From an uncultured bacterium (lineage in GTDB: Bacteria; Bacillota_I; Bacilli_A; RF39; UBA660), in NCBI GenBank assembly GCA_949285875.1, contig CASDZZ010000001.1, positions 7,110-71,109 of the forward strand: a DNA stretch of 64,000 nt, read 5' to 3'. Of the stretch, positions 3,711 to 55,396 are shown one piece after another; the stretch's first letter is position 1, and every line of letters starts with the position of its first letter. A model generated the notes under the pieces. The model saw nothing but the letters and a program-made list of their open reading frames with translations. It searched no databases and was not told the origin of the DNA. A program made the translations under genes and the position numbers.

Positions 3711-3792
3711 CCAAAAGGTGCTTTAGCATCTTTTTATTTGTTTATAAAAAGATGTATAAAAATTATATAAAGACATATTTTTTAGTAGAGGT

Positions 3793-4484
3793 GTGAAAGT
3801 GAAAAAAATATGTTTTTTTATAATTTGTTTCATTTTATTGATTCCGTTTGTTAATGCAGAGGAAAATGATAAACCAACTGATGAAATTAAAAAAGAAGAA
3901 AAAATAGAAAGTGATAAAAAAGATAGTTTATTAAATGATGGAAAAAGTGCAATTTTAATAGAAAATTCAACAGGTAAAATAATTTATGAAAAAAATTCTC
4001 ATGAAAGATTTGCTCCAGCTTCCATGACAAAAATAATGAGTATGCTTATTTTTATGGAAGAAATAGAAAAGGGTAAGTTAAAATGGAATGATACTTTAGT
4101 AACTAGTGATTATGCATCATCTATGGGGGGATCTCAGATCTTTTTACAACCTAATGAAAAAATGAGTGTTACTGATTTGTTTAAAGCAGTAGCGGTAGGT
4201 TCTGCTAATGATGCAACTATTGTCCTAGCTGAAGCAACCTATGGAACTGAAGAAAAATTTGTAAAAAGAATGAATGAAAAAGTTAAAGAATTAAATCTTA
4301 AAAATACTAATTTTAAAAATGCAGTAGGTTTAGATGAAGCTAATCATTATTCTTCAGCATATGATATGGTAATGATGGCTCGTGAATTAATTAAACATGA
4401 AAAAATTTTCGAATTTACAACCATTTATGAAGATTATCTAAGGCAAAATACTGACAATAAATTTTGGTTAGTAAATACAAATAA
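3793..4484 (+). CDS. D-alanyl-D-alanine carboxypeptidase (PBP5/DacB/DacF family), 5' segment interrupted by a mobile element
   Basis: Signal peptide. SxxK active site (ASMTKIM). The frame runs ...FWLVNTNK, then 11 element-encoded codons and a stop at 4521. The missing KTG half is found in frame at 16294..16821. Confidence 0.85.
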
Positions 4485-4505
4485 AGTCGTATTTACATTT
4501 TGCTA
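4471..4505 (+). repeat. attL (core plus element-side arm GTATTTACATTTTGCTA)
   Basis: Core 4471..4484. The element arm at 4489..4505 is the reverse complement (16/17) of the arm at 16277..16293. Confidence 0.8.
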
Positions 4506-4615
4506 TAAAACATTAATCTAGTATGTTTATAAAAAAAAGTCAATTTAAGTATTATAATAAATTGCATAAATTTATTCATGGTTATCTATACTTTATTAGA
4601 AAGTGGGGAATAACT

Positions 4616-4720
4616 ATGATTGATAATGAAATACCTAGAAAAATTCAAATTGAAATTATGAAGTTTTTTCTAAATACAAGCATACCTAGAATTTTAAAAT
4701 TAAATATCAAATCTATTTAG
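4616..4720 (+). CDS. Small hypothetical protein upstream of the recombinase (34 aa)
   Basis: ATG behind GTGGGGA. The longer 4523 start would begin at the att arm and has no RBS. Function unknown. Confidence 0.3.
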   Translation: MIDNEIPRKIQIEIMKFFLNTSIPRILKLNIKSI

Positions 4721-4741
4721 TAAATAGAGGAGATAACATTT

Positions 4742-6214
4742 ATGGAAGAAAAAATAACAACAGGAATTTATATCAGGGTTTCAACAGAGGACCAAGCAAA
4801 GGATGGATTTTCAATTCATGCTCAAAGGGAAAAATTAACTAAGTATGCAGAGGCTAATGATTGGGGAATTTATGATTACTATGTAGATGATGGAATAAGT
4901 GGTAAAAATTTAGAAGATAGACCCGAAGTATGCAGATTAATTAACGATGTGAAAGAAGGAAAAGTAAACAATATTTTAATTTACAAATTAGATAGATTAA
5001 CACGTAGCGTAAGAGACTTAATATATTTAATTGAATTGTTTGAAAAAAATGGTTGTACTTTTAATTCTCAAACAGAAAAAATTGATACCTCTAATGCTGT
5101 TGGTAGAATGTTTGTAAAGATAATTGGAATTTTCGCAGAGTTTGAAAGAGAAAATTTAGCAGAAAGAGTATCGTTTGGATATGAACAAAAAACAAGAGAG
5201 GGAAATTATACTAACACTTGTGGTGTTTATGGATACGATTATATAGCAGGAAAACAGGAATTAATTGTAAACGAAAAAGAAAAAGAAATTGTTAATAGAA
5301 TTTTTGATTTATATATTGATGGTAATTCTTATTTTAAAATAGCTCGCTTATTTAATGAAGAAGGTATACCAACTAAAAGAGGTGGTCATTGGGCAAGGAG
5401 CACAATAAAGTCCATAATAAATAATCCACTATATATTGGTAAAGTAAGATATGGATTACAACCAAAAAATAAGGATAAGTCATTTACTGTCGATGGTAAA
5501 AATATCGAACATATAATAGATGATGAAAAATGGGAATTAGCTAATAATATAATTACTACAAGAAAAAAATTTTGTGTTAGAAGATACCCAAGTGAAAATT
5601 CATATTTTTTTCATACAATAAAATGTGGAAAATGTGGTGGAAATATATCAGTTAGACAGCAAAAGCAAAATGGTAATTTATATATTACATACAAGTGTTA
5701 TAATGCGATTAGGGGTATTTGTGATTGTACTGGCTTTTCACATAAACTTATGGAAAATGCTTTTATAGAATATTTAGATACTTTTAATGACATGACTCCT
5801 GATATAAATATCATTGAAAAAAGCAATAAAATTAATGATTCTGAAAAGAAAAAAATTGAAATTAACAAAAGAATAGATAAACTTGAAGAAAAAAAGAAAG
5901 TTATCAGAAATCAATTTATTAATGATTTAATCGATGTAGAAGAATATCATAGTATGTTTAATGAAATACAAAACCAGCAGAATATACAAAAAAACAAGTT
6001 ACTAGAACTTGATGAAATTATTAATGAGAGTAAAAGAACATATAATTATGATGAAATAAAGGATATAGTAACAAATATAAAATTAAATTGGGAATATTTA
6101 ACTAATAAAGAAAAACAACAATTTTTAGAACGTTTTGTTGAGATAATTATGGTACAAAAATTTAACAAAAAAGTTATTATTAATTTAGTACAATTTAAAA
6201 ATAAATGTTGTTGA
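4742..6214 (+). CDS. Large serine recombinase (resolvase/invertase N-domain, recombinase domain, zinc ribbon, coiled coil)
   Basis: GIYIRVSTEDQ catalytic Ser motif. CGKCGG...YKCYN zinc ribbon. K/E-rich coiled-coil C-terminus. 490 aa. Confidence 0.9.
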   Translation: MEEKITTGIYIRVSTEDQAKDGFSIHAQREKLTKYAEANDWGIYDYYVDDGISGKNLEDRPEVCRLINDVKEGKVNNILIYKLDRLTRSVRDLIYLIELFEKNGCTFNSQTEKIDTSNAVGRMFVKIIGIFAEFERENLAERVSFGYEQKTREGNYTNTCGVYGYDYIAGKQELIVNEKEKEIVNRIFDLYIDGNSYFKIARLFNEEGIPTKRGGHWARSTIKSIINNPLYIGKVRYGLQPKNKDKSFTVDGKNIEHIIDDEKWELANNIITTRKKFCVRRYPSENSYFFHTIKCGKCGGNISVRQQKQNGNLYITYKCYNAIRGICDCTGFSHKLMENAFIEYLDTFNDMTPDINIIEKSNKINDSEKKKIEINKRIDKLEEKKKVIRNQFINDLIDVEEYHSMFNEIQNQQNIQKNKLLELDEIINESKRTYNYDEIKDIVTNIKLNWEYLTNKEKQQFLERFVEIIMVQKFNKKVIINLVQFKNKCC

Positions 6215-6300
6215 TAAAATAAAATATTTTAATAAGAGAGTGTAATAAAAATGTATAAGTAGTGAAACTTATACATTTTTGTTACTTAATTTATATAATA

Positions 6301-6522
6301 CTAATTTTTTTTATAGTTTTTAAAAAATTCTCTAGTAACAAAATCATAATTTTGAGCAACATAAAATAAGTTGTCCAAGGAAACGCCTGTATCAACGTTT
6401 GGACTATCTATTTGAGATATGAAACTTCTACTCATTTCACAGTCTTCGGCTAATTTTTCTTGAGAACAACCTATTTGTATATGATAATGTTTAACATTTT
6501 TAGTTAATATTTTAAGTATCAT
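6301..6522 (-). CDS. XRE-family helix-turn-helix regulator
   Basis: HTH_3-like IGCSQEKLAEDCEMSRSFISQIDS. 73 aa. Divergent from the cargo operon. Confidence 0.7.
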   Translation of the reverse strand: MILKILTKNVKHYHIQIGCSQEKLAEDCEMSRSFISQIDSPNVDTGVSLDNLFYVAQNYDFVTREFFKNYKKN

Positions 6523-6777
6523 ACAATTACCATCTAATGTTATTATGATAACTTTTTATTTTATTATTTACTACCAAGTCTATCTTACATTTATAAAGGG
6601 GATTTTTATGAAATTGAGGGCGATTATTTTGAATTTAAATATAGATTGGATAAAAACAAAAGAAAATATAATGGATGAAGTAGAAAGGATAATAGCTATT
6701 TTTTTTATAAAATTAATACAAAAATAATAAAAAAATCGGTTTTTAATGAATATTTATAAACTTTTGTAATAAAAGTA

Positions 6778-6899
6778 TTGACATTATATGGCAAATACTG
6801 TATTTTAAAAACAATTAAATCAATCTGGGTGTTGTGTTTGCTCAAATGGTGGCAGTATTTTCATGGTGGCAAACACTTATATGTTTTTGCCACCTTTTT
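6778..6899 (+). ncRNA. Candidate short transcript/leader: promoter TTGACA-17-TATTTT followed by an intrinsic terminator
   Basis: TTGACA at 6778..6783. Stem GGTGGCAAA (6865..6873) / TTTGCCACC (6886..6894) plus a T-run. A second upstream GGTGGCA copy at 6848..6854 could form an alternative pairing. Confidence 0.3.
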
Positions 6900-6951
6900 A
6901 TTATTTTTATAATAAAGGTGATTAATTTAAAATATTTAAGGAGTTGATAGT

Positions 6952-7047
6952 ATGAGAAATAAGAGTCTGCTTTCTAATAATAAAATATATTTAGCTAGTA
7001 AAGTTAGTCTAACTTTCTTATGCCTATTCTGCTTCTTAATCAAATAA
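6952..7047 (+). CDS. Small ORF, 31 aa (MRNKSLLSNNKIYLASKVSLTFLCLFCFLIK): leader peptide or small hydrophobic peptide
   Basis: Strong RBS AAGGAG 8 nt upstream. The stop is 5 nt before the terminator stem. Below the ORF-track size cutoff. Confidence 0.4.
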   Translation: MRNKSLLSNNKIYLASKVSLTFLCLFCFLIK

Positions 7048-7051
7048 CTTT

Positions 7052-7100
7052 AAGACAGTGACTTTTAAGGCCGTATGACCTTTTGAGCTGCTGTCTTTTT
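7052..7100 (+). terminator. Intrinsic terminator/attenuator immediately upstream of the rel-like RBS
   Basis: AAGACAG (7052..7058) / CTGTCTT (7091..7097) plus TTT. There is no room for a promoter before the RBS AAGGAGGTG at 7109. Confidence 0.5.
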
Positions 7101-7122
7101 GCTATATAAAGGAGGTGTTTTT

Positions 7123-8568
7123 ATGGAAAAACAAAATTTAGATATTAATGATTTGATAAGTATTATTAAATCATATAACCCAGATGAAGTTGAAAAAGTA
7201 AAAAGAGCTTATAATATGGCAAATACTCTTCATCAAGGTCAGCAAAGGCAAAGCGGAGAGCCTTACATAATCCATCCGTTAAATGTAGCTTACATATTAG
7301 CGGAATTAAGAGCGGATTCAGATACGGTATGTGCGGGTCTTTTGCATGATACTTTAGAAGATACTAATATTTCTAAAGAAGAAATTGCAGAAAACTTCAA
7401 TAGTGATGTTGCAAACTTGGTTGATGGAGTAACAAAGATAAGTAAGATGAACTTTTCATCAAAACAAGATCAGAATTTGGCTAATACAAGAAAAATAATA
7501 ACAAGTATAACAAACGATGTAAGAATTATTTTAATAAAACTAGCTGATAGGCTTCATAACATGAGGACTTTACAATTTAAAAGTGAGTTTAAACAAAAAG
7601 AAAATGCTCTAGAAACACTTGAAATATTTGTTCCTATGGCATATTACATTGGAGCATATAGAATAAAACAAGAACTAGAAGATTTATCACTTAGGTATTT
7701 AAAACCTGATATGTATAAAACAATTGGTGAAAAGAAAAAAAGGATAGAAGAAGAAAGTGCATCATGCTTAAAAGAAATGTTACAAACGATACAAAGTATG
7801 CTTAATGATGAAGCAATTCCAAATGAAATAAAGGTTAGAACAAAAAATATATATGGAATATATAAAAAGTTAAACGAAGGAGGAAAAATATCTGACATAC
7901 ATGATTTGTTAGCGCTTAAAGTAATGGTTGATACTATTAATAATTGTTATCAAACGTTAAGACTTGTTCATAGTAAATATAACCCGGTAAATGGCAAGTT
8001 TAAAGACTTTATATGCAATCCAAAAACAAATATGTATAGATCACTTCATACTACCGTATTTGCACCAGACGATAGATTAGTACAAACGCAAATAAGAACG
8101 TTTGATATGGATAAAGTAGCATCGTTTGGACTATCAACATATTGGGATATTGAAAAGGGAAATGCAAGAGAAGTGATGCAACAAGAACTAAAAGATAAAT
8201 ATCAGTTTTTTACATCACTAGTTGAAATGGACAAGGTTTTTGGAGACAATAAAGAATTTGTCTATCAAGTAAAAAATGAATTATTTTCAAACAAAATATA
8301 TGTATACACAACTAAAGGAGAAATAGTTGAATTACCGGTAGGTGCAACACCAATAGATTTTGCTTATAAAATACACACTGACATAGGGAACACCATGGTA
8401 GCTGCTATTGTAAATGATGAATATGTAGATGTTGATAAACCACTTAAGAACAAAGATAGAGTAAGAATAATAACAGATGATTTATCATTTGGACCAAGAG
8501 AAGATTGGGAAAGTAAAGCCGTTACAACGTATGCGAAAAGAAGAATAAGAGAATTTAATAAAAAATGA
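7123..8568 (+). CDS. Truncated long RelA/SpoT homolog (HD hydrolase + synthetase-like + TGS; no C-terminal ZFD/ACT domains)
   Basis: HD motifs RQSGEPYIIHP, LLHDTLEDT, DRLHNMRTL. Synthetase-region motifs RTKNIYGIYKKL, DLLALKVMV, YRSLHTTV, but QTQIRT where Rel proteins have EVQIRT. TGS region TTKGEIVELPVGATPIDFAYKIHTDIG. About 481 aa versus about 730 aa for Rel. Confidence 0.8.
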   Translation: MEKQNLDINDLISIIKSYNPDEVEKVKRAYNMANTLHQGQQRQSGEPYIIHPLNVAYILAELRADSDTVCAGLLHDTLEDTNISKEEIAENFNSDVANLVDGVTKISKMNFSSKQDQNLANTRKIITSITNDVRIILIKLADRLHNMRTLQFKSEFKQKENALETLEIFVPMAYYIGAYRIKQELEDLSLRYLKPDMYKTIGEKKKRIEEESASCLKEMLQTIQSMLNDEAIPNEIKVRTKNIYGIYKKLNEGGKISDIHDLLALKVMVDTINNCYQTLRLVHSKYNPVNGKFKDFICNPKTNMYRSLHTTVFAPDDRLVQTQIRTFDMDKVASFGLSTYWDIEKGNAREVMQQELKDKYQFFTSLVEMDKVFGDNKEFVYQVKNELFSNKIYVYTTKGEIVELPVGATPIDFAYKIHTDIGNTMVAAIVNDEYVDVDKPLKNKDRVRIITDDLSFGPREDWESKAVTTYAKRRIREFNKK

Positions 8569-8653
8569 AATTGAGTTTATAGGGATCTCGTAAAAAAAAA
8601 CTAATATCAAATGATAAGGATATCTTTTGATATCAATTTAAGGAGGTGAGATT

Positions 8654-8710
8654 ATGAGAAAATTGATGAAAAAATTCAATAGAAAATATGACATGTTATG
8701 CACTGCATAA
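8654..8710 (+). CDS. Candidate precursor peptide, 18 aa (MRKLMKKFNRKYDMLCTA)
   Basis: Near-consensus RBS AAGGAGGTGA 4 nt upstream. Followed by a perfect hairpin and then the modification-enzyme genes. Below the ORF-track cutoff. Confidence 0.5.
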   Translation: MRKLMKKFNRKYDMLCTA

Positions 8711-8726
8711 ATATCATAAATTAATT

Positions 8727-8750
8727 AAGTCATAGAATTTTCTATGACTT
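8727..8750 (+). promoter_or_regulatory. Perfect stem-loop between the peptide gene and the enzyme genes
   Basis: AAGTCATAG-AATT-CTATGACTT with no long T-run. This resembles the partial terminators seen after RiPP precursor genes. Confidence 0.5.
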
Positions 8751-8768
8751 TGATAGGAGGTTTAATAA

Positions 8769-10382
8769 ATGGAAAATATAAAGAGCAAAATTATTCCAGA
8801 AAATTTAAAAACAAATATTGATGAAGTTATGGAACAACAGTTATTTAATGCTAATAGATATTATGCGGAGTCTAATCCTGAAATAAGTAATTTAATGCAA
8901 AATGAATTACATCAAAGACCAGAGGATTTTTTACAAAAATTAATGGAAAGGTGGAATTGGCATAATACTTATTATGAATTATTATTAGAACCTGCTTTTG
9001 ATAAAATTATTAAAGAAGATTCTATAGAATTATCTCCAGAAGAAATAAATGATATTATAAAAATATATTCTACATCGTGTTTGGTTGATGAGGCAACACT
9101 TGTGATGTCAGGTGTAATAAAGAAATATTTGGAACATAATTATCCAAATATTAACGTAACGGATGAGAATATTCCATTAAGCAAGGCAAATATAATGCTG
9201 ATTACCCCACCAATAGAAACCTTTTTTGCTCAATATCAAATTGACCATTTATATTATATATATCTACTTAAAACTAAAGATGCTGATACATCTAAGTTTA
9301 AAGAATATTTATTAAAAAAATATCATGCTTGTGATGAAAAAATATTTTTGTCTAGATTTACAAGAAAATTCGGTAACAAATTACAAATGTCAGAAAGAGA
9401 AATTTTAGAAGAAATTAGACATTATAAAATATCTGAGTCATATAAAACACAACATTTTTATTTCACATTAGAACATAGTGATAGAAAAGCTATTAGAGAT
9501 ATAATTATTTATGATAACTTAGATGAAAAATTAATAGCATCAAATTTAATTGGAGTTTCAGGATTCTTATTTAGAAGAAAGGTTTTAGAATATTTAAATA
9601 ATAGTGGTATTTTAAGAAATAATGGTTATATATATGAATTTAATAATGATGTAATTATAAATTCATTAGAAATGTTAAAAAATGAAAGGGAAATCAAAAT
9701 GGATAAAAATGTTAGACCATACAAACAAAAAGGAGATACCTGTGCTATCGTTTGTATGATGATGGTGTTAGAATATTATAAAGTAATAGAAAAAGCAAAT
9801 TGGTATGATGAAAGAAGACTATATAAAATATATGGTTCAGAATATATGAATGGAACTCCATTTTCAGCATTAGCATTTCATATGGCAAAAAATGGTTTGA
9901 ATGTTACTATGTATCATGAAAATAAAGATTTGTTTGAAAATAGTCATAATGTTCTTAGAAATGAAGATTTTGAATTTGCAATGAATGAATATAAAGAGTA
10001 TTTAGGCTACGCTAAAAACAAGGGAGTAAAGGTTTTAAATGGAACCCCAATAAATACGGATGTATTAAAGCGAAAATTACAAGATGGTAATTTAGTTATA
10101 TTAGCCGGCGAAATATTTGAAGTATATCATGCAATATTACTTACAGGTTATGATGAAAATGGATTTATAGTTTGTGACCCTTTATATAAAACAAAGCAAA
10201 CAAGGACCTTTGAAGAAATAGAAAGCTTTATGAATACAAGTATTGGGAAATGGTTTATCACAGTTAATGATAAAACAAAAGAGAAAGAAAAATTAATATC
10301 TAATTTAGATAAATTTACCGAAGAAGCAAAAGATTTTATGACTAAAAAAGAGGATAGGAGTCTTCGTCATGTTAAAAAATGA
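8769..10382 (+). CDS. Two-domain protein: unknown N-terminal about 310 aa + papain-like cysteine peptidase (C39-like) domain
   Basis: QKGDTCAIVCMMMVLEYY (Cys) and YHAILLTGYDENGFIVCDP (His) are spaced as in Peptidase_C39-like domains. RBS AGGAGG. Confidence 0.6.
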   Translation: MENIKSKIIPENLKTNIDEVMEQQLFNANRYYAESNPEISNLMQNELHQRPEDFLQKLMERWNWHNTYYELLLEPAFDKIIKEDSIELSPEEINDIIKIYSTSCLVDEATLVMSGVIKKYLEHNYPNINVTDENIPLSKANIMLITPPIETFFAQYQIDHLYYIYLLKTKDADTSKFKEYLLKKYHACDEKIFLSRFTRKFGNKLQMSEREILEEIRHYKISESYKTQHFYFTLEHSDRKAIRDIIIYDNLDEKLIASNLIGVSGFLFRRKVLEYLNNSGILRNNGYIYEFNNDVIINSLEMLKNEREIKMDKNVRPYKQKGDTCAIVCMMMVLEYYKVIEKANWYDERRLYKIYGSEYMNGTPFSALAFHMAKNGLNVTMYHENKDLFENSHNVLRNEDFEFAMNEYKEYLGYAKNKGVKVLNGTPINTDVLKRKLQDGNLVILAGEIFEVYHAILLTGYDENGFIVCDPLYKTKQTRTFEEIESFMNTSIGKWFITVNDKTKEKEKLISNLDKFTEEAKDFMTKKEDRSLRHVKK

Positions 10383-10704
10383 GTATTTATTTTATAGCGA
10401 TTATTTTAAAAAAAGAAATATTAAGAATAAATCAATCATGGTTGCGAAAACTAAAGAATCATATTTAATTGGTCCAATAATAAACTCTGATTTTGATGAA
10501 CAATCATTTTATAAAAGAATTAAATCAAATAGTATATATACAACTAAAATATATAAAAGAATGTTTAGAAATAAATGTAATTTATTAATTAATAAATATA
10601 AAAAAAATTTAAAAAACAATCAAATAATTGAAGTTTACAAAAATGGTGAAATAGTTTTACATTCAATTTTAAAAGTTCCAGGTGAAGATGATGAAAAAAA
10701 ATAA
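10369..10704 (+). CDS. Small basic protein, 111 aa, translationally coupled to the flanking genes (possible YcaO partner/peptide-recognition protein)
   Basis: RBS GGATAGGAG. Overlaps the upstream gene by 14 nt and the YcaO start region. No motif recognised. Confidence 0.5.
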   Translation: MLKNEYLFYSDYFKKRNIKNKSIMVAKTKESYLIGPIINSDFDEQSFYKRIKSNSIYTTKIYKRMFRNKCNLLINKYKKNLKNNQIIEVYKNGEIVLHSILKVPGEDDEKK

Positions 10705-11968
10705 GTTGATATTAAATAGACAAGAAATTATAGATATTTTAGGAAAAGAATATAAAAGTTTAGCAAATATATTTAGTGATAAAGTTGGGATAGTAAATGC
10801 CATGTTAGAAAGGCACGAATTAGATAAATATGACCTTTTTATGTATCAATGTTTGAGTGCCAATGTTACTAAACTATTTGATTTAAACAGAGAAGTTTCA
10901 AGTGGTGGTCTTGGAGTTCATGAAGATAAAAAAACTGCAATGATAAGTTGTTTAGCAGAAGCTTTAGAAAGATATTGCATGTCTTTTATTCCTAAAGGAG
11001 ATTTAATTATTTGTAGAAAAAGAGATTTAAATAATAAATATGTATTTCAATCTTTTTATACTTATAACAAAAATCAATATAATCGAAATAAAAATTTTCT
11101 AGATCCTAATAATGATATTATTGAATGGACAAAAATAATTAGTGTAAATAATAAAAATAATTTTAAATATTGGCCAGCAAGTTTAATATATTTACCATAT
11201 GAAGTAAATTCAGTTGTGGCAGAGACCACGTCAACTGGTATGGCGGCAGGTTTTGATATAAATGAGTGTGTTGAAAGTGGATTAATGGAATTAATTGAAA
11301 GAGATAGTTTAATGATTAATTTTATGCAAAGATTAAATCCTCCAGAAATTAATTTAGATACAATTAGTGGCATAAATCAAAAACTTATTTTAACAATAAA
11401 AAAGGAATATAATATAAAAATATATCAATTATATTCTGATATAGATGTACCAATTTATCTTTCTATAATTTATAAGGGAAATAATAAAGATACGCATTAT
11501 GGTATTGGAGCCTGCGCAAATGTTGATTCAGATTACGCAATTAATAAGTCCTTAAAAGAATGTTTATTTACATATTTTTATTCTTTGAATATAATGGATG
11601 CGAAGGTAGAAAATCCTAATAATATTAAAGCTTTGTATGAACATTTTCTATATTACCAAGGAAACAATTTTAAAGATTTATTATTTGATAGTAAAATTAT
11701 TAAATATGAAAGAAAGAAAACCTCATTAAAAAAAGTGATTGAAAACTTAAAATCTAAAAATATTGATGTATTCTATAAAGAATTAACAACAGATGATATT
11801 AAAGCGACAAAAATAAGAGTATTAAAGGTAATTGCTCCAGGGCTTATAGATATGCATAAAAGTCATATATTACCACGTTTGGGAGCTGAAAGATATTGGA
11901 GTGTTCCTCAAAAATTAGGTTTAAAGTATTTTAAAAAATTATGTGATAAGCCACACCCTTTTCCTTAA
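10688..11968 (+). CDS. YcaO-domain protein (ATP-dependent peptide backbone amide activation / cyclodehydratase family)
   Basis: SSGGLGVHEDKKTAMISCLAEALERYC, ELIERDS, and a proline-rich C-terminus ending PHPFP. Confidence 0.85.
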   Translation: MMKKNKLILNRQEIIDILGKEYKSLANIFSDKVGIVNAMLERHELDKYDLFMYQCLSANVTKLFDLNREVSSGGLGVHEDKKTAMISCLAEALERYCMSFIPKGDLIICRKRDLNNKYVFQSFYTYNKNQYNRNKNFLDPNNDIIEWTKIISVNNKNNFKYWPASLIYLPYEVNSVVAETTSTGMAAGFDINECVESGLMELIERDSLMINFMQRLNPPEINLDTISGINQKLILTIKKEYNIKIYQLYSDIDVPIYLSIIYKGNNKDTHYGIGACANVDSDYAINKSLKECLFTYFYSLNIMDAKVENPNNIKALYEHFLYYQGNNFKDLLFDSKIIKYERKKTSLKKVIENLKSKNIDVFYKELTTDDIKATKIRVLKVIAPGLIDMHKSHILPRLGAERYWSVPQKLGLKYFKKLCDKPHPFP

Positions 11969-11989
11969 TTATTTGTGAGGTGTTTGAAA

Positions 11990-12955
11990 ATGAAAAAAGA
12001 AATATTAACAAACTTATTTGCCGATTTATTAAATGTTATTGATAAAAATGAAATAAATGAAATTAAATTAAAAATTGATTTAAATGATAACAATATTTAT
12101 TCGATACTTGATAAAATTTGTTTGTATTTTTACACATTGTATAATGATAGTGCAATAACTATAGAAAAATACAATATGATATTAAATACTATCAATAAAT
12201 ATTATAACAAGAGTGCTGATTATATTTATAATAGGATAGATTGGATTACTGAAGCCTATTTAAGTAATCCTAAAATTTCTTTAGATTACCATCATCAACA
12301 GTTATTATCATATTTTAAAAAAATAAATATTATTTTGAATAAATATAAAATTGATTATTTTCATGCAAGTGGATTTATAGGGTATATATTATCAGATAAG
12401 AAATTAGAAAGATTTCATCATGATATTGACTTGTATGTAAATGAAAAATGTTTGAATGATTTAATTGATGGCTTTTTAAAAGAAAATTTCGATATTATTT
12501 ATACTCATGAAAAATACAAAGAAAATTTATTTAGACATGGTTTTAAAATAAAAAGTAATGATGTAGATATTCCTATATGGTTATCTTTTTATGAGTGTCT
12601 TTCGAATGGCGCAATATATGTTAAAGAGTACTACGAAGACAAAGATAAAAATCAAATTACAAAAAGGAATTATAATACACCTTTATGCACATTATTGAGT
12701 TTAACTGATGGCAACTATAATGGTATAAAGTTTAAATCCATGAGTTTAGAGGCACTTTATTGTAGTAAAAATGGTAATCGAAAAAAAGATATTTATGACT
12801 GTAAAGTTATAAAAGAGTTAATGGATATGAATAAAGCTGAAATGCTAAAACAGGAATTGATATACGAATGGGAAATACTAAATTATATACCTACTTCGGT
12901 TACAGATGCAATCAATAAAATTACTCGTGGAAAGGAGTTGGCGTATCATAAATAA
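11990..12955 (+). CDS. Pol-beta-fold nucleotidyltransferase (Lnu/ANT(2'')-like) with an N-terminal helical extension
   Basis: HASGFIGYILSDKKLERFHHDIDLYV resembles the GGWAxD...RxHxDIDI nucleotidyltransferase motif. RBS GTGAGGTG. Confidence 0.55.
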   Translation: MKKEILTNLFADLLNVIDKNEINEIKLKIDLNDNNIYSILDKICLYFYTLYNDSAITIEKYNMILNTINKYYNKSADYIYNRIDWITEAYLSNPKISLDYHHQQLLSYFKKINIILNKYKIDYFHASGFIGYILSDKKLERFHHDIDLYVNEKCLNDLIDGFLKENFDIIYTHEKYKENLFRHGFKIKSNDVDIPIWLSFYECLSNGAIYVKEYYEDKDKNQITKRNYNTPLCTLLSLTDGNYNGIKFKSMSLEALYCSKNGNRKKDIYDCKVIKELMDMNKAEMLKQELIYEWEILNYIPTSVTDAINKITRGKELAYHK

Positions 12956-13823
12956 ATTACCAAAAAATGAATATAGAATTTCAATAATATCAGCATGCAA
13001 TATGAGATGCGTATATTGTCACAATGAAGGTAATAAAAAAAATAGCAAACTAAGCGTAAATGATATTAGGTGCATTGTTGAAAATTCGAAAGGATTAAAC
13101 TTAACTAATATGAGATTGACGGGTGGAGAGCCGCTGTTACATCCTGATATTTATAAAATATGTAAAATGCTTTCAGAAGAATATAATCTTAAAGTGGGTA
13201 TTAATACTAATTGTATTGAAATTGATAAAATTATTTATATGATAAAAAAAGGTTGGATTGATAGGGTAATTGTAGGATTAGACTATTTTGATGGGGTTGT
13301 ATCAAAGCAATCGCCAGTAGGAAAAACCTCAAAGGAGATTTTATCTAATATATTAAAAATAAAAAGGCTAGGGTGTAATGTCTCAATTTCAACTGTATAT
13401 AATAATAATTATGACAATATATTTAAATTAGTTGGTTGGTGTGTTAATAATAAAATAAGAATTAAAATTATAGAATTAATAAAAAATGAAATACATGAAA
13501 GTTCTGATTTAAATTATATAAAAATGAGAGATTCAATTATTAAAGATTATAAATTTAAAGTTAAGATTGATGAGTTAGAAGAGTACAATTGTTATATAGA
13601 TAATTTTAATGTGGTCTCTTTTTTTCCGTCATTATGTAGATTAAGAAGATGTGATATATGTAAAAAAATACATCTTAGAATTACAAGTGAAGGTAATATA
13701 AAACAATGTATTCATTATGAAAATAATGATAAAAGTGTAATAGGAAAAAATAGTAGATTAAATATACTAGAAGAAATAAATCGTGATGTTGATTATCATT
13801 ATGAGGTAAAAAATGAAGTATAA
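12906..13823 (+). CDS. Radical SAM enzyme, MoaA-like (twitch-type C-terminal Cys cluster)
   Basis: CNMRCVYC (CxxxCxxC), LTGGEPLLHPD, C-terminal CDICKKIHLRITSEGNIKQC resembling MoaA CxxC..RLTADGKL..C. Lacks the MoaA C-terminal GG. The start is uncertain (12906 ATG overlaps the upstream gene by 50 nt). Confidence 0.8.
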   Translation: MQSIKLLVERSWRIINKLPKNEYRISIISACNMRCVYCHNEGNKKNSKLSVNDIRCIVENSKGLNLTNMRLTGGEPLLHPDIYKICKMLSEEYNLKVGINTNCIEIDKIIYMIKKGWIDRVIVGLDYFDGVVSKQSPVGKTSKEILSNILKIKRLGCNVSISTVYNNNYDNIFKLVGWCVNNKIRIKIIELIKNEIHESSDLNYIKMRDSIIKDYKFKVKIDELEEYNCYIDNFNVVSFFPSLCRLRRCDICKKIHLRITSEGNIKQCIHYENNDKSVIGKNSRLNILEEINRDVDYHYEVKNEV

Positions 13824-14172
13824 AGTATTTTGCCATGGTTTTTTACGAAATAAAAATAGAATTTTATATTTAAAAAGAGAAAAAGATAAAATATATCCAT
13901 GTAAATGGGATTTGCCAGGTGGATTTTGTGAGTCGAATGAAACGTTTGAAGATTGCATTGTGAGAGAATTTAAGGAAGAAACCAACTTAGATATATCTGT
14001 TATAGATTTGATTGATTTAAAATGCCAAATTTATAATAATGAAATTATAATTGTTCTTTTATTTGCTGTTAAGTTAAAATCCAAAAGAAAGATTAACTTG
14101 AATTTTGAACATACAGATTATGAGTATTTAGACTGTTTAAATGGTAAAGATGTTATATGGTATTTAAAATAA
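13813..14172 (+). CDS. Nudix hydrolase
   Basis: Nudix box GFCESNETFEDCIVREFKEETN. Overlaps the radical SAM gene by 11 nt. Confidence 0.85.
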   Translation: MKYKVFCHGFLRNKNRILYLKREKDKIYPCKWDLPGGFCESNETFEDCIVREFKEETNLDISVIDLIDLKCQIYNNEIIIVLLFAVKLKSKRKINLNFEHTDYEYLDCLNGKDVIWYLK

Positions 14173-14189
14173 TTATAGGGGGGTATAGT

Positions 14190-14828
14190 ATGATTAATTA
14201 TTTATTTAGCGGTATTAACTCTGAAAAAGGTTTTACAAAAGAGCAATCTAAATATTTAAAAAAAGATATTAAAAATAACTCAAATATAGTTTTTATTGCT
14301 AGTGTATTTAGTGATTATAAGAAAAATGATGAGTTATTTGAAAGCTATATAAAATGTTTCAGAAACAACAATATTAAATTTAGAAAATCAAGTATTATTG
14401 ATGATAGAATTTCTATTACTTTAGCGCATAAATTAATTAAAGATGCTGATATAATATTCTTACTTGGTGGGAATCCAGAAATGCAAATGAGATCAATTAA
14501 TCAGTATGCTTTAAGAAAGTACATAAAAAAAGTGAATATAGTAATCGGTGTTAGTGCTGGTTCCATGAATCAGTCAAAAAGAGTAATGTACAAAAATGAT
14601 TTTGAAAATTTTGTAATGAAAGATTATGAGGGCCTTGGTTTGGTAACAATAAATATTTTTCCTCACGTAGATTTGAATAATCGAACCATTATTAAAGAAG
14701 TAATGGAAATTAGTGATTATTTACCACTTGTTTTATTACCAAATGATTCTTTTATAAGAATTTCTAATAAAGTTGAATATTTTGGAAAATATTATTTTAT
14801 AAAAAATAGAGAAATTATCAGTAACTAA
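14190..14828 (+). CDS. Peptidase S51 family (dipeptidase E / cyanophycinase-like)
   Basis: ADIIFLLGGNP, nucleophile motif GVSAGSMN, IFPH. Start at the ATG behind AGGGGGG. Confidence 0.75.
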   Translation: MINYLFSGINSEKGFTKEQSKYLKKDIKNNSNIVFIASVFSDYKKNDELFESYIKCFRNNNIKFRKSSIIDDRISITLAHKLIKDADIIFLLGGNPEMQMRSINQYALRKYIKKVNIVIGVSAGSMNQSKRVMYKNDFENFVMKDYEGLGLVTINIFPHVDLNNRTIIKEVMEISDYLPLVLLPNDSFIRISNKVEYFGKYYFIKNREIISN

Positions 14829-15103
14829 AAATCTAGCTTTAAATTAATGCTATATATCTAAATATGATAATAATAATGGGATCTATTTTTTAAAAATTAT
14901 ATAAGCTATAATTGAATTAATATAGTTTTATTAAGAATAATATAAGATTAATTGTATAATTGTAAATGATGTATAATGATAAATTAAAGCATATATAATA
15001 ATTTTGCTCATTAAATGAATATAAAAGCAAAGCCATCTAATTTCAGATTAGCCTTGCTTTTTAAATATTTAAAAAAATTTATTTTTCTTTTTCAATGGTA
15101 ACT

Positions 15104-15295
15104 TTATATCCATATTTTTTTTGCTATTCTCATTAAGGTTTCAAAAGTATATCTTCTTGTTCCTCTTTCATAGCTTTGAATTGCCATGTCACTTAAACCT
15201 ATACTTTTTCCAAAGTCAGGTTGACTTTTATCTGACCATTCTCTTAAAATTTTAATTACTTCTTTTTCTTTATAATCATTTGCAACAATTCTCAT
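15104..15295 (-). CDS. Small HTH regulator (XRE-like), paralog 1
   Basis: 63 aa, about 70% identical to the neighbour. Has an A8 run where the paralog has A6, which changes the C-terminal tail. Confidence 0.6.
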   Translation of the reverse strand: MRIVANDYKEKEVIKILREWSDKSQPDFGKSIGLSDMAIQSYERGTRRYTFETLMRIAKKIWI

Positions 15296-15307
15296 TTTAT
15301 GAACTCC

Positions 15308-15586
15308 TTATGAATCTACAATACTAAAAAAAATTAATATTAAGTCCTTTTCCATACGTAGAGTATGTGCATCATTCATCTTTTTCGATTGTAATTTTAT
15401 ATCCATATTTTTTGCTATTCTTATTAATGTGTCAAAAGTGTATTTTCTTGTTCCTCTTTCATAGCTTTGGATTGTCATGCCACTAAAACCTATACTTTTT
15501 CCAAATTCTGGTTGTTTTAAATTTGTCCATTCGCGTAATATTTTTATTACGTCTTTAGATTCATAGTCATTTGCGATTATCTTCAT
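15308..15586 (-). CDS. Small HTH regulator (XRE-like), paralog 2
   Basis: Start at MKIIANDY behind AAGGAGGGGAG. QPEFGKSIGFSGMTIQSYERGTR HTH. Confidence 0.6.
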   Translation of the reverse strand: MKIIANDYESKDVIKILREWTNLKQPEFGKSIGFSGMTIQSYERGTRKYTFDTLIRIAKNMDIKLQSKKMNDAHTLRMEKDLILIFFSIVDS

Positions 15587-15706
15587 ATATGCTCCCCTCC
15601 TTGACAAACATACTCTAAGTATGTATAATTTTATTAAAATCCATACATCGCGTATGCTTAGACGTGTTAATTAACCAAAATATATGATTTTATAGGAAGT
15701 GGAGTC

Positions 15707-16189
15707 ATGAACAAGGAATTAGAATGGCATAATATAAAAATAAAAATCAAAGATATAGCAACAAAATACATTCAATATTGTTTATTGATAGATATTAATT
15801 CTACTTCAAAAATTTCTAAAGATTATACTTTGGAAATATTAGATATTAATGATATAAATAATTACACTAGGCTCAATAACATAGAATTAGAAAAACGAGT
15901 TAATAAAATAAACTCGTTTAGAATCGCATTTAATAAGTTGACAACAGAAGAAAGAAAAATAATATATTGGACTTATTTGGATAAGATAATTATGAAAGAA
16001 ACGTATAAAAAGTTATATACTCTTTTAAATACAATATTAAGTGACATTGAAAAGAGAGTAATAGAAATGATATATGGAATAAAGGGTAAACAGTACAAAC
16101 AAATTGAAATTTCAGATATTCTCAATATCCGCAGTATAAAGTTTCAAGAATTAAAAAAAAGCTTTAAAACAATTAAAATGTTATATTAA
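15707..16189 (+). CDS. Sigma-70 region-4-like / ArpU-like putative transcription factor
   Basis: TTEERKIIYWTYLDK and LSDIEKRVIEMIYG...QIEISDILNIRSIKFQELKK resemble region 4 HTH segments. Last gene before attR. Confidence 0.4.
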   Translation: MNKELEWHNIKIKIKDIATKYIQYCLLIDINSTSKISKDYTLEILDINDINNYTRLNNIELEKRVNKINSFRIAFNKLTTEERKIIYWTYLDKIIMKETYKKLYTLLNTILSDIEKRVIEMIYGIKGKQYKQIEISDILNIRSIKFQELKKSFKTIKMLY

Positions 16190-16276
16190 TGATACGATTT
16201 AAAAAAATTTTTTTAATATATATCAAAAATTGTATTTAAATGTTATAATAAAGGTACTTGTTAGATTTGATATTTA

Positions 16277-16307
16277 AATTTTTATAGTAAAATGTAAATA
16301 CAAATAA
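16277..16307 (+). repeat. attR (element-side arm TAGTAAAATGTAAATAC overlapping the core)
   Basis: Joining the two ends gives attP = TAGTAAAATGTAAATAC-AAATAAAGTC-GTATTTACATTTTGCTA, with a central non-palindromic AA. Confidence 0.8.
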
Positions 16308-16821
16308 GCTCATTAAAACTTATGAAGGCGCTGATGGGTTAAAAACAGGATATACTAGTGAGGCTGGTTACTGTTTAACAGCAACAGCTAAAAAAAATAA
16401 CATGAGATTAATAGGTACTGTTATGGGGGCTAGTGATAGTAAATCTAGAAATAGTGTGATGACAACCTTATTAAATTATGGGTATAATATGTATGAAATG
16501 CAAGTTGAAATAGAAGAAGGAAAAACGGTTGTGAAGAAAAATTCTCCTAAAGCCCTAAATGAAGAAATTTTAATTGTGCCTAAAACTGATGCAAGTGTAT
16601 TAGTAGAAAAAGGAAATGAAAAGGAAGCTTTAAATTATGAAGTTAAAATTGATAGGTTGAAGTTACCTATAAAAAAGGGCGAAAATGTTGGTACGCTTTT
16701 CTTAAAAGAAGGAAAAAAAGTTGTTAGTAAAGTTCCTTTAACGGTAAGCTGTGATGTAGAAAAAGCAGATATTTTAACGCTTTATAAAAGAAATATAAAG
16801 AAAATATTAAGTGGTGTATAA
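16294..16821 (+). CDS. D-alanyl-D-alanine carboxypeptidase, 3' segment (continues 3793..4484)
   Basis: In-frame VNTNKLIKTYEGADGLKTGYTSEAGYCLTATAKK (KTG motif) and a PBP5 C-terminal domain. A stop codon lies immediately upstream at 16288. Confidence 0.85.
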   Translation, partial: VNTNKLIKTYEGADGLKTGYTSEAGYCLTATAKKNNMRLIGTVMGASDSKSRNSVMTTLLNYGYNMYEMQVEIEEGKTVVKKNSPKALNEEILIVPKTDASVLVEKGNEKEALNYEVKIDRLKLPIKKGENVGTLFLKEGKKVVSKVPLTVSCDVEKADILTLYKRNIKKILSGV

Positions 16822-19871: not shown

Positions 19872-19892
19872 AAAATTATATTGGTGATGAAA

Positions 19893-21256: not shown

Positions 21257-21257
21257 T

Positions 21258-23624: not shown

Positions 23625-23771
23625 GAAGAATATCAACCACCCATTCAACCACCAAAATAGGAGATTTTTATTTTAAAGTTATAAACTTGTTTAAACTTTT
23701 GTAAACAAAAATCCTTTGAAAATAAAGGATTTGATAATATAAAATAGTTTAGAGTACGTGATATAAGTTTG

Positions 23772-23806
23772 CCCCCTGAAGAGAGCGAAAGCTCTCATTT
23801 TTGTTT
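23772..23806 (+). repeat. Structured repeat copy 2: CCCCCTGAAGAG-hairpin-CTCATTTTTGTTT
   Basis: Hairpin GAGAGC/GCTCTC. The stem covaries relative to copy 1 while the flanks are identical. Confidence 0.6.
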
Positions 23807-31582: not shown

Positions 31583-32389
31583 ATGAAACTATACTTGGAT
31601 TTAATTATTTTACTTAATCTTTTTTTAGATTATGTTTTACTTCTTGTGGTTTCTATAATTTTAAAAAGAAATGTAAAAATGTTAAGAATAGTATTAGGTG
31701 CTTTAGTAGGTGGCGTTAGTGTTTTGGCTTTATTTTTAAGTTTTACTTCTGCTACCTTATTTATTTTTAAAATATTTATATCAATATTAATGGTAATAGT
31801 AGCTTTTTCTTATAAAAATATTAAGTATACCTTAAATAATTTATTTTATTTATATATTATTAGTATTACTTTAGGTGGTTTTTTATATTTTGTAAACGAC
31901 CAATTAGCATATAAAAATAATGGTTTGTTTTTTTATCATTCAGGATTAAGTATAAATTGGATCTTAGTTATAATTTTAACCCCAATTATTACTTTTATTT
32001 ATATATTTCAAACGAAGAAACTTAAAGAAAAATTTTCAAAAATATATAAAGTTAATATAACTTTATTAAATGGAAAAGAATTAAACATTTCAGGATTTTT
32101 AGATACGGGAAATAGCCTTATTGATCCTTATAAAAAAAGACCTATAATAATGGTCAATAAAGAGCTTTTAGATACGTATAACGAAAAATATATTTTAGTT
32201 CCATGCACAACAGTAAATAGCAAAAGCATGCTAAAGTGTTTTAAAATAGAAAAATTACTTATAAATGGTAAAAAAATAGAAGAAGATGTATTATTAGGAA
32301 TAAGCGACAATAATTTTGATTCATTAGGGGTAGAGTGTTTATTACAAAAAAATATTTTAAAAGGAGAAATTTATGAAGAAAATAATTGA
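31583..32389 (+). CDS. spoIIGA: Sigma-E processing aspartic peptidase SpoIIGA
   Basis: Multi-TM N-terminal domain, GFLDTGN active-site motif. Overlaps sigE. Confidence 0.85.
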   Translation: MKLYLDLIILLNLFLDYVLLLVVSIILKRNVKMLRIVLGALVGGVSVLALFLSFTSATLFIFKIFISILMVIVAFSYKNIKYTLNNLFYLYIISITLGGFLYFVNDQLAYKNNGLFFYHSGLSINWILVIILTPIITFIYIFQTKKLKEKFSKIYKVNITLLNGKELNISGFLDTGNSLIDPYKKRPIIMVNKELLDTYNEKYILVPCTTVNSKSMLKCFKIEKLLINGKKIEEDVLLGISDNNFDSLGVECLLQKNILKGEIYEENN

Positions 32390-33062
32390 ATTTATCAAAA
32401 AGTTGTTTTTTAAAGTTAATGAAGTATTTTTTGTTGGTAGTAGTGATGCACTTCCAGAACCTTTAAGTAAAGAAGAAGAAATAAAATATGTTAAAGCGTT
32501 TGAAGAAGGTAGTATAGAAGCTAAAAATAAACTTATTGAACATAATTTAAGATTAGTAGTTTATCTAGCTAAAAAATATGAAAATACTAAGATTGATTTA
32601 GAAGATCTAGTAAGTATTGGAACGATAGGGTTAATAAAAGGTATAAATACATATAAATTAGATAAAAATATAAAGCTAGCTACTTATGCTTCTAGATGTA
32701 TAGATAATGAAATTCTTATGTATTTAAGAAAAAATAGAAAAAGAAGTGGTGACGTATCTTTAGAAGAATCTTTATCTTATGATGCTGAGGGTAATGAATT
32801 ACATCTTGAAGATATTTTGGGTACAGAAGCAGATTTGGTTACTAAAAAATTAGAGGATGATGACTTAAAATATACTTTGATGAATGAAATAGAAAAACTT
32901 CCAGAAAGAGATAGAGAAATTATGAAATTAAGGTATGGCCTTTTTGGAGAAAAAGAGATTACCCAAAAAGAGCTTGCAGAAAAGTTAAATATATCGCAGT
33001 CTTATATCTCAAGAATAGAAAAGAAGGTTATAAGAAAAATTAAAGAAACTATAAAGTTATGA
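32373..33062 (+). CDS. sigE: Sporulation sigma factor SigE (pro-sigma-E)
   Basis: Pro-sequence then VGSSDALPEPLSKEEE, HNLRLVVYLAKKY, region 4.2 ISQSYISRIEKKV. Confidence 0.9.
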   Translation: MKKIIEFIKKLFFKVNEVFFVGSSDALPEPLSKEEEIKYVKAFEEGSIEAKNKLIEHNLRLVVYLAKKYENTKIDLEDLVSIGTIGLIKGINTYKLDKNIKLATYASRCIDNEILMYLRKNRKRSGDVSLEESLSYDAEGNELHLEDILGTEADLVTKKLEDDDLKYTLMNEIEKLPERDREIMKLRYGLFGEKEITQKELAEKLNISQSYISRIEKKVIRKIKETIKL

Positions 33063-37334: not shown

Positions 37335-37402
37335 CCATAATAAGCAAGTATTATGGTTAATAATAAAAAAAATACAAATAAAAATAGAAGGAGAAAGAAG
37401 TT

Positions 37403-55371: not shown

Positions 55372-55396
55372 TTAAAATAGTTTGAGGGTGATATAT

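Follow-up and report, generated by a model that had tools for sequence, protein, structure and literature searches.

Why is the dac gene of an uncultured gut bacterium, which codes for a PBP5-type DD-carboxypeptidase, cut in two by about 11.8 kb of inserted DNA, and does this insertion simply inactivate the gene or can it leave it intact again at a given stage of the life of its host? The question is raised by a stretch of 64,000 nucleotides from contig CASDZZ010000001.1 (assembly GCA_949285875.1), hereafter called the window. The interrupting DNA, from 4485 to 16307, is an active-type, non-phage integrative element, whose 490-aa large serine recombinase (LSR) recombined an attP of about 54 bp with an attB lying inside the dac coding sequence, the crossover AA falling in the codons of ...N-T-N-K.... 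This element belongs to a previously unreported and widespread family. It may also be excised from the chromosome of the mother cell during sporulation, which would restore dac; considering the promoters and the relatives described below, we give this developmental excision a probability of about 0.5.

The split dac gene and its attachment sites

Starting from 3793, the dac frame reads ...DNKFWLVNTNK up to 4484/4485, where it is followed by 12 unrelated codons and a stop at 4521. It picks up at 16294 as VNTNKLIKTYEGADGLKTGY... (VNTNKLIKTYEG...), in the same frame since (16294-3793) mod 3 = 0, and the element counted with one copy of the core measures 11823 nt, i.e., 3 x 3941. A first-pass annotation of the window, made from the sequence and its open reading frames (ORFs), had claimed that the frame is lost after FWLVNTNK at 4484 and regained at 16294; coordinates and frame arithmetic agree with this, and the insertion is both precise and in frame.

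The same annotation had predicted that deletion of the element would give a collinear carboxypeptidase of 401 aa. Joining 3793..4484 to 16308..16821 indeed yields such a protein, in which the Pfam domain Peptidase_S11 (PF00768, E = 1e-76) runs unbroken over the junction, from residue 49 to residue 273, and is followed by PBP5_C (PF07943). The motifs SMTK77 (SxxK), SAN137 (SxN) and KTG243, at residues 77, 137 and 243, are all present, and the insertion point separates the first two from the third. With its three motifs, its S11 domain and its PBP5 C-terminal domain, the rejoined Dac is a PBP5-type DD-carboxypeptidase (MEROPS S11). Uninterrupted orthologues spanning this junction, on which the first-pass annotation had made its reading depend, do exist in relatives; the closest are full-length proteins of 402 aa that share 76% identity with the rejoined Dac over 99% of the query. 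An assignment of Dac to DacA, DacB or DacF was tried and abandoned, the matches in PDB and NCBIfam being those of a generic PBP5-type enzyme.

The 14-bp core GTAAATACAAATAA occurs exactly twice in the window, at the two junctions, as had been noticed initially, and nowhere else; the number of matches expected in the window, even with one mismatch allowed, is 0.41. The element ends carry inverted arms of 22 bp (4489-4510 and the reverse complement of 16280-16301, 21/22 identical), longer than the 17 bp (16/17) first reported. The reconstructed attP is a dyad of about 54 bp, TTTTATAGTAAAATGTAAATAC-AAAT-AA-AGTC-GTATTTACATTTTGCTATAAAA, with the central AA at the right edge of the core. The dyad with a central AA inside the core, proposed in the first reading, was thus recovered, and its length was revised from 44 bp. 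When the attL and attR of the same element are compared, for 25 complete elements, their common identity goes down to AAA in some of them, and the last base of this AAA is not shared in the window, so that AA is the sole possible crossover dinucleotide. Both attB and attP can be reconstructed on this basis, in line with the initial claim. The sites have the features of serine integrase att sites, i.e., an imperfect dyad of about 50 bp, a central non-palindromic dinucleotide and an empty site equal to the left part of attL joined to the right part of attR.

Other dyads lie close to these sites. An extra P'-like arm of the window (16230-16252) pairs with the P arm (83% over 23 nt). In many relatives, a second near-complete attP-like dyad, whose central dinucleotide is altered, is found just inside attL, directly upstream of the promoter of the recombination module (for example about 40-100 nt inside the left end of L006, L008 and L012). 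These additional dyads may be operator sites of the LSR or scars of tandem insertions.

The LSR possesses the resolvase, recombinase and zinc-ribbon domains that characterize large serine recombinases (PF00239, E = 4.8e-42; PF07508; PF13408) and matches the integrase family phrog_95 (E = 6e-125). Its catalytic R12-S14 block and its DRLTR block are invariant across 30 aligned relatives. Scans of the ORFs of the element with Pfam and PHROG found no phage structural, packaging or lysis gene, which upholds the first description of an intact LSR adjoining attL in an element free of phage structural genes. No relaxase and no family involved in conjugation or type IV secretion was found among these ORFs with Pfam (oriT was not searched for). 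A prophage origin was considered and rejected, given the absence of any virion match in Pfam or PHROG and the fact that the single member of the family found in IMG/VR is itself located in dac; the other viral matches to the LSR in IMG/VR have at most 41% identity and no dac flanks.

Spread of the recombinase family

A survey using one genome per GTDB species provided 206 relatives of the LSR, of which the best 80 were analysed. A dac fragment adjoins the LSR in 76 of these 80, and the break is located each time at residue 231/232. Among the four others, three contigs begin exactly at the junction (L020, L038 and L045) and one, from Candidatus Scybalousia intestinigallinarum (L010), has a flank not recognisable as dac. 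This last locus (L010:9600-10000) carries the same type of element, with a GTCGTG... left end, next to ...CTATACAAACGAATAAA, a flank in which tblastn recognised no dac; either dac has decayed there or the element used a secondary attB, the lineage being one for which an absence of peptidoglycan is predicted. The host side of the junction always reads ...GTnAATACnAATAA(A), the element side GTCGTRT... in almost all relatives, and the right ends finish with ...ACATAC-AAnnAAA. The hosts are labelled as uncultured Bacilli, Clostridium sp. CAG:433, CAG:914 and CAG:1193, Mycoplasma sp. CAG:611, Tenericutes, Candidatus Scybalousia and Haloplasma, which we take to be reduced-genome Bacilli of the RF39/RFN20/ML615J-28 type.

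The complete elements range from 1.85 kb, the size of the remnant L025 whose LSR is truncated, to 11.8 kb. An all-against-all comparison of their ORFs of at least 45 aa shows that the LSR alone is universal; with a small ORF of 34 aa, described below, it makes up the common content of the family, and the cargo varies. Other elements encode Schlafen/AlbA_2-HATPase, Fic, RhuM or Bro-N proteins, a tyrosyl-tRNA synthetase, a methyltransferase or small sigma factors. As for orientation, 55 elements are of a forward type, in which the 5' part of dac, the small ORF and the LSR lie on one strand, and 12 are of a reverse type, in which the LSR adjoins the 3' fragment of dac on the opposite strand.

Many lines of evidence indicate that these elements move between species. 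LSR proteins with 96-100% identity occur in hosts where the N-terminal parts of Dac share only 47-78%, and the identity of the LSR shows almost no correlation with that of Dac (r = 0.11). In the same way, 94-100% identity is seen over the first 1750 nt of the element when loci are compared of which the adjacent 540 nt of dac are 63-76% identical. For example, L263 carries an LSR 96% identical to that of the window, together with the 34-aa ORF, in the dac gene of another host with different neighbours. The cargo of this element (L263:11900-20300) comprises radical SAM/SPASM, Vut_1, GT2, QueC, His_Phos_1 and DUF6270 proteins and an IS256-type transposase fragment, a set suggestive of 7-deazaguanine or nucleoside modification.

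Occupied and empty sites can also coexist. The 90% protein cluster of the Dac of L046 contains full-length alleles of 400 aa, 98.75% identical to the rejoined protein (P0242), along with N-terminal fragments ending at the 231/232 site. Furthermore, the intact locus L265 and the split locus L275 share 98.8% identity over 2190 nt of flank, and the intact sequence corresponds to the base to the left part of attL joined to the right part of attR; L265 is therefore a near-conspecific empty site. This family is spreading horizontally between species now; unlike skin, the element is not a domesticated insert fixed in its lineage.

It should be emphasized that the same gene is the target of a second, unrelated group of LSRs. 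In L016, L041, L061, L075, L025 and L086, an insertion lies at the SxN motif (...SAND|A...). The second-site LSR, of 563 aa in L075 (L075:3797-9700), is 25-32% identical to the first family, and its element has its own inverted arms (GTTACTAAAAAGCAGT) and other cargo. Both sites are occupied in some species, where dac is in three pieces, and the cluster of L046 includes alleles split solely at the second site (P0243, P0245); the protein P0249 is another second-site case. The L046 cluster also contains a Dac variant of 489 aa, P0248, that is identical up to residue 364 and unrelated beyond, and may point to a third site of insertion, close to the 3' end of the gene. That two unrelated LSR families converge on dac is more readily understood if this gene serves as a harbour in which insertions are tolerated and can be undone than if it is a conserved target hit at random.

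The 34-aa ORF was searched for with a hidden Markov model built from 21 copies, in 86 sequences (81 LSR loci, the window and four loci with an intact dac). Its core motif, EIMKFFLxTSxPxIL, is present in 75 of them and missing from the four intact loci; the seven LSR loci that lack it are mostly cut close to the LSR. In forward-type elements its end is usually some 20 nt ahead of the LSR, and in reverse-type ones it lies elsewhere in the element, at times on the other strand. Two independent gene callers annotated it (L263 and L275), and its sole library match is phrog_30936 (function unassigned; E = 1e-4). Since excision by an LSR needs a recombination directionality factor (RDF), since these elements do leave their hosts and since nothing else is conserved, the 34-aa ORF is the best candidate for this role. 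Such a size would have a precedent in GirX, the demonstrated RDF of the gin element, which has 42 aa (PMC5595907), and the partner described here could rank among the smallest directionality factors.

Promoters, selection and the proposed excision

A promoter-like element is located just upstream of dac. In B. subtilis, the consensus sequences are ZHATAXX-14-CATACAHT for sigmaE, AC-17-CATAnnnTA for sigmaK and GHATR-18-CATXHTA for sigmaG. The upstream regions of 37 non-redundant dac genes, with differing upstream neighbours, were compared with those of 740 other genes of the same loci. A CATA is found 22-26 nt before the dac start in 28 of the 37 and within -33..-21 in 33, and a [TG][ACT]ATA sits 15-16 nt upstream of it. 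The whole motif, [TG][ACT]ATA-N15/16-CATA, occurs before 18 of the 37 dac genes versus 5 of the 740 others (p = 4e-22). Within the window, a sigmaE-like site followed by a ribosome-binding site and an ORF is found solely at dac. The dac motif fits sigmaE, and fits sigmaK, sigmaG, sigmaF and sigmaA less well. It would place the start of dac transcription about 13-16 nt before the start codon. Such a short leader is not without precedent, because transcription of CD1234, the sigmaE-dependent RDF gene of C. difficile, starts only 14 nt before the start codon (PMC5025042). As for the context of dac, in the L046 species (L265/L275:1-1455) the gene lies 46 nt downstream of a gene encoding a 707-aa class B penicillin-binding protein (PBP) with PASTA domains (SpoVD/PBP2B-like), and the sigmaE-like promoter of dac is there inside the end of the class B PBP gene.

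The recombination module has a promoter-like element of its own, which is kept in two LSR subfamilies as G[CA]ATA-N17/18-TATA[CA]T. Its features are mixed: its -35 matches GHATR and its spacing is that of sigmaG, whereas the -10 TATA[CA]T fits sigmaA better, and the assignment of a sporulation sigma factor was given up for this reason. A generic scan for sigma-70 promoters is uninformative in DNA of 25% GC (30 sites versus 28.8 expected). Only 1 of 54 loci has a terminator-like hairpin in the interval that separates the dac fragment from the LSR, versus 13 of 48 with one just after the LSR. As no terminator separates the 5' part of dac from the LSR, transcripts begun at the dac promoter should extend into the recombination module. 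In reverse-type elements, a CATAwnTT is found 16-36 nt before the start of the 34-aa ORF in 5 of 7 cases; this motif precedes 15 of 37 dac genes and 4 of 740 other genes.

These observations suggest the following scenario. dac would be a mother-cell sporulation gene, a status proposed because of its conserved sigmaE-type promoter, and its interruption would be tolerated during growth. Once the dac promoter fires, RNA polymerase would run through the 5' fragment of dac and go on to transcribe the small ORF and the LSR. The LSR, with the small protein as directionality factor, would recombine attL with attR; the element would exit as a circle and an intact dac would be rebuilt in the terminal mother cell, the forespore chromosome retaining the element. 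The weak promoter of the module itself would serve for integration after transfer to a new host. In terms of the class of gene-intervening elements, the in-frame rejoining to a full-length gene is found here, and mother-cell expression is predicted from the promoter motif. The first-pass annotation had already compared the locus to intervening elements of sporulation genes: the architecture that it recognised, a precise LSR insertion in dac with in-frame rejoining, is confirmed, and the developmental excision that it drew from it is still a prediction.

A bolder version makes dac a common safe harbour, used by two unrelated families of LSR cassettes, one at the SxN site and the other at VNTNK just upstream of KTG. 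Their cargo, of a defence or metabolic kind, would spread horizontally, and the cassettes would do no harm because their excision would be wired to the mother-cell promoter of dac, either by read-through into the 34-aa factor and the integrase or by the same type of promoter placed before that factor. We hold this to be rather unlikely as it stands. If it were true, the harbour would amount to a gene switch that times itself and requires no dedicated regulator, in a whole radiation of uncultured, genome-reduced gut Bacilli.

The state of the dac halves also bears on the proposal of developmental excision. The 25 rejoined Dacs, 24 from relatives and one from the window, are all free of stop codons and keep KTG; SxxK is likewise retained in every case where the N-terminal part could be recovered. 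The ratio of nonsynonymous to synonymous substitution rates (dN/dS) of the split dac N-terminal parts is 0.05-0.22. In two pairs of loci, the dS of the LSR and that of the dac N-terminal part are similar (0.69 vs 0.67 for L044/L082; 1.05 vs 0.87 for L028/L080), which suggests a long co-residence under purifying selection.

Several points weigh against a developmental role. The argument from selection is weak because most insertions are recent, so that intact halves and low dN/dS would mostly reflect the history of dac before insertion; two or three pairs argue otherwise. The sigma call relies on consensus sequences of B. subtilis and C. difficile, which are distant from these uncultured hosts and their 25% GC DNA, and the conserved promoter that forward-type modules carry is not sigmaE-like. 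The -35 part is not conserved before the 34-aa ORFs of reverse-type elements and, if this ORF encodes the RDF, its co-transcription with the LSR from the module promoter is awkward for stable integration. The sporulation role of Dac is deduced from its promoter, and the protein is nearer to the PBP5/DacA type than to B. subtilis DacB (183 vs 121 bits in PDB, where its relatives are enzymes of the PBP5/DacA/DacC type). The first reading took the host for a spore former. Homologues of spoIIGA and sigE are present in the window, as it stated, and both matches are full-length; their scores are nevertheless below the curated cut-offs (141 bits versus 210 for SpoIIGA, TIGR02854; 301 bits versus 339 for SigE, PRK08301). 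The host orders mix species predicted to sporulate with others that are not (PMC10868615). Lastly, no same-species intact dac was found in 5.8 billion protein clusters, the best match being at 76%, and a single scan of a metagenome collection with a degenerate junction pattern revealed no attB or attP of the window species. This pattern allowed GGTC, and almost all of the 97 loci retrieved were therefore copies of an unrelated, abundant gut sequence; they included one foreign attL and one foreign attB.

The most serious rival is an ordinary site-specific mobile element devoid of any developmental role, which would use a conserved stretch of dac as attB, in the way that many serine integrases exploit conserved genes, within their coding sequence, knock out a dispensable carboxypeptidase and be excised occasionally for transfer. 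We rank this a little lower than the developmental model, as a real contender that falls somewhat short of even odds. It accounts well for the massive recent horizontal spread, for the polymorphism of presence and absence inside one species-level cluster, for the varied accessory cargo (Fic, RhuM, Bro-N, Schlafen/AlbA_2, tyrosyl-tRNA synthetase), for a module promoter that is not sigmaE-like and for the lack of excision junctions in the protein clusters and in the metagenome scan, and it draws strength from the location of both insertion sites in active-site motifs, i.e., the most conserved DNA of dac. However, it leaves unexplained the convergence of two unrelated LSR families on dac, the sigmaE-like promoter of this gene, the strong bias towards the forward orientation with no terminators, the dac-like -10 before the small ORF when the latter is transcribed separately, and the purifying selection in co-diverged LSR/dac pairs. 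A permanent knockout in at least 76 species would also be surprising in a lineage poor in PBPs, the host orders having lost most of them according to a 2024 study (PMC10868615).

Two other explanations have far less weight. A fixed, dead insertion, in which excision would be lost and dac would be a pseudogene in this organism, is consistent with the absence of an intact allele of the window species among the protein clusters and of attB/attP in the metagenome scan, and relative L025 shows that remnants with a truncated LSR do arise. For the family as a whole it is excluded by the near-identical modules in divergent hosts and by the empty site. It is improbable in the window too, because the full-length LSR with its invariant catalytic residues, both att sites (arms 21/22) and both dac halves, open and with all their motifs, are intact; moreover, a 96%-identical LSR resides in another host and the family is demonstrably mobile. 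An artefact of assembly or binning giving a chimeric contig might be feared from metagenome-type assemblies, the more so as related contigs often break right at the junction (L020, L038, L045). Its likelihood is nevertheless negligible: the attL junction of the window recurs in an independent ENA assembly (L005) and is thus not an artefact of a single assembly, the same junction is seen in dozens of independent assemblies of other species, G+C is equal inside and outside the element (0.246 versus 0.25-0.26), and a common core is found at both junctions with an exact in-frame rejoining.

Element content and known systems

The features of the locus are collected in Table 1.

Table 1. Positions of the features of the interrupted dac locus in the 64-kb window.
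Feature	Position	Strand	Remarks
Terminator-like hairpin after ssb	3713-3734		sets the dac promoter region apart
dac promoter-like element	3754..3781	+	GTATA-N15-CATATTTT; sigmaE-type (ZHATAXX-N14-CATACAHT)
dac 5' part	3793..4484	+	signal peptide, SxxK and SxN motifs, up to ...FWLVNTN(K)
attL core copy	4471..4484	+	crossover AA placed at 4483-4484
P' half-site of attP	4485..4510	+	AGTC, then 22-bp arm GTATTTACATTTTGCTATAAAA; 21/22 vs reverse complement of 16280-16301
Module promoter-like element	4564..4592	+	GCATA-N18-TATACT
34-aa ORF	4616..4720	+	MIDNEIPRKIQIEIMKFFLNTSIPRILKLNIKSI; conserved partner of LSR; candidate RDF
Large serine recombinase, 490 aa	4742..6214	+	Pfam Resolvase, Recombinase, Zn_ribbon_recom
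Terminator-like hairpin	6242..6285	+	ends the small-ORF/LSR unit
Small helix-turn-helix (HTH) protein, 73 aa	6301..6522	-	convergent with LSR; weak HTH_19 match; in just 2 other elements
Cargo operon, eight genes	7099..14828	+	function unassigned
RelA/SpoT-type HD-synthetase-TGS protein	7099-8568	+	cargo; truncated
C39-like peptidase protein	8769-10382	+	cargo
111-aa ORF	10369-10704	+	cargo
YcaO protein	10682-11968	+	cargo; SagD-type but below cut-off
326-aa protein	11975-12955	+	cargo; no Pfam match; by eye, nucleotidyltransferase-like GS...DxD motif
MoaA-like radical SAM protein	12906-13823	+	cargo
Nudix protein	13813-14172	+	cargo
Peptidase S51 protein	14157-14828	+	cargo
Two tandem XRE-type HTH genes	15104..15607 (15104-15295, 15308-15607)	-	repressor-like; 70% identical to each other
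Sigma-70 region-4-like protein, 160 aa	15707..16189	+	Pfam Sigma70_r4 just under cut-off; phrog_351 match
P half-site and attR core copy	16280..16307	+	arm 16280-16301 overlaps core 16294-16307; crossover AA at 16306-16307
dac 3' part	16308..16821	+	KTG motif, PBP5 C-terminal domain
spoIIGA, sigE	31583..33062 (31583-32389, 32373-33062)	+	NCBIfam homologues; host context

Except for a Nudix-type protein, the cargo of the window element is not common to other members of the family. It could encode a pathway for a nucleotide- or peptide-derived metabolite, or a defence system. The identity of a defence system was not retained, PADLOC giving only weak matches (Nudix to PDC-S07, E = 6e-18; RelA/SpoT to PDC-S33; the radical SAM protein to pVip, more weakly than to MoaA). 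Capture of cargo genes from the host was likewise discarded, as the S51 and Nudix proteins of the element are only about 30% identical to their chromosomal paralogues at 43.7-45.4 kb. Small sigma-70-like proteins (160-181 aa) are found in seven elements (the window, L041, L008, L026, L040, L052 and L080), with region 4 in the window and region 2 (Sigma70_r2) in L041, and such an element-borne sigma factor could be relevant to regulation.

Outside the element, an accessory-island-like region lies just downstream of dapA (19881-24884). It comprises a pair of genes that look AbiEi/AbiEii-like by eye (19881-21256) and, as identified with NCBIfam, a 791-aa primase-polymerase/helicase fusion (21249-23624) and a Fic-domain protein (24036-24884). 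By eye again, two tandem pilin- or pseudopilin-like genes whose N-terminal halves are near-identical are located at 36870-37852, and a Tad/Flp-type pilus assembly cluster, with a CpaF-like ATPase (56576-57910) and TadB/C-like membrane proteins, at 55021-59625.

Among known systems, the closest is gin, inserted in gerE, then skin, then SPbeta and phi3T. The gin element of B. cereus ATCC 10987, with its LSR GirC and its RDF GirX (Abe et al. 2017, PMC5595907), is, like the dac element, a non-prophage element that interrupts a coding sequence and has neither conjugation genes nor phage structural genes. In both cases the LSR has a tiny partner (42 aa for GirX, 34 aa here), a likeness of size. Identical copies of gin across strains point to recent transfer (PMC5595907), and the dac family has likewise been transferred recently. 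However, gin targets gerE in few strains of Bacillus, whereas the dac family is spread over at least 76 species among uncultured gut Bacilli of low GC, with a very variable cargo; the excision of gin and the role of its RDF were demonstrated experimentally, whereas those of the dac element are deduced from sequence.

The skin elements of sigK are excised by an LSR, SpoIVCA in B. subtilis or CD1231 with CD1234 in C. difficile, and this excision precisely restores the gene (PMC5025042). In C. difficile, the small sigmaE-dependent RDF confers cell-type specificity (PMC5025042). Skin elements of different sizes have the recombinase alone in common (Galperin et al., bioRxiv 10.1101/2022.02.25.481979). 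Different recombinases act at different positions of sigK in Bacillus and Clostridioides, just as two LSR families use two sites in dac. Nevertheless, skin is a largely vertical, defective prophage located in a regulatory gene and its mother-cell timing is proven, whereas dac elements are mobile, interrupt the gene of a cell-wall enzyme and have a predicted timing. SPbeta in spsM and phi3T in kamA (SprA/SprB; PMC4191935, PMC6957869) have their attB in a mother-cell sporulation gene, which they leave both to be transferred and in the course of sporulation, so that being mobile and being developmentally excised are compatible. Both are full temperate phages of about 130 kb, whose RDF is under sigmaE/K and stress promoters, whereas dac elements have 1.85-11.8 kb and no virion genes.

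More distant parallels are provided by XisF/fdxN, XisA/nifD and XisC/hupL of heterocystous cyanobacteria, where developmental excision also takes place in terminal cells and several functionally linked genes are interrupted. The match of the window LSR to the NCBIfam model of XisF (E = 6e-45; 154 bits for a cut-off of 375) is a family-level resemblance, in another phylum and another programme. The best-scoring NCBIfam LSR models are those of CcrB and CcrC (E = 8.5e-55 and 3.7e-51), recombinases of the staphylococcal cassette chromosome (SCC), with 186 bits, far below the equivalog cut-off of 900. SCC is, like the dac element, a cargo cassette moved by LSRs at one chromosomal site, but this site is the 3' end of rlmH and the gene is not inactivated.

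The targets of intervening elements listed in the papers searched are sigK, spoVFB, spoVR, gerE, spsM and kamA. Our literature search retrieved no paper linking dac to a serine recombinase or to an intervening element, in keeping with the first-pass annotation, which knew of no description of dac as a target. LSR-driven gene-intervening elements are themselves known; what is new is the target, dac, and the host lineage. The scale of the family (at least 76 species), its dual sites, the diversity of its cargo and a possible wiring by promoter read-through add to its interest. Even with no developmental link, the family would still mark a dominant hotspot of integration and carry varied cargo among gut bacteria of which little is known, and its near-identical integrases acting on differing attB flanks offer a natural experiment on att recognition, serine integrases being tools of genome engineering. 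If excision is tied to sporulation, the ratio of attB/attP to attL/attR reads would become a readout of sporulation in stool or in spore-enriched fractions, and dac would join the six genes listed above as the first case in uncultured Bacilli of the RF39/RFN20 type, where sporulation is only predicted from genomes.

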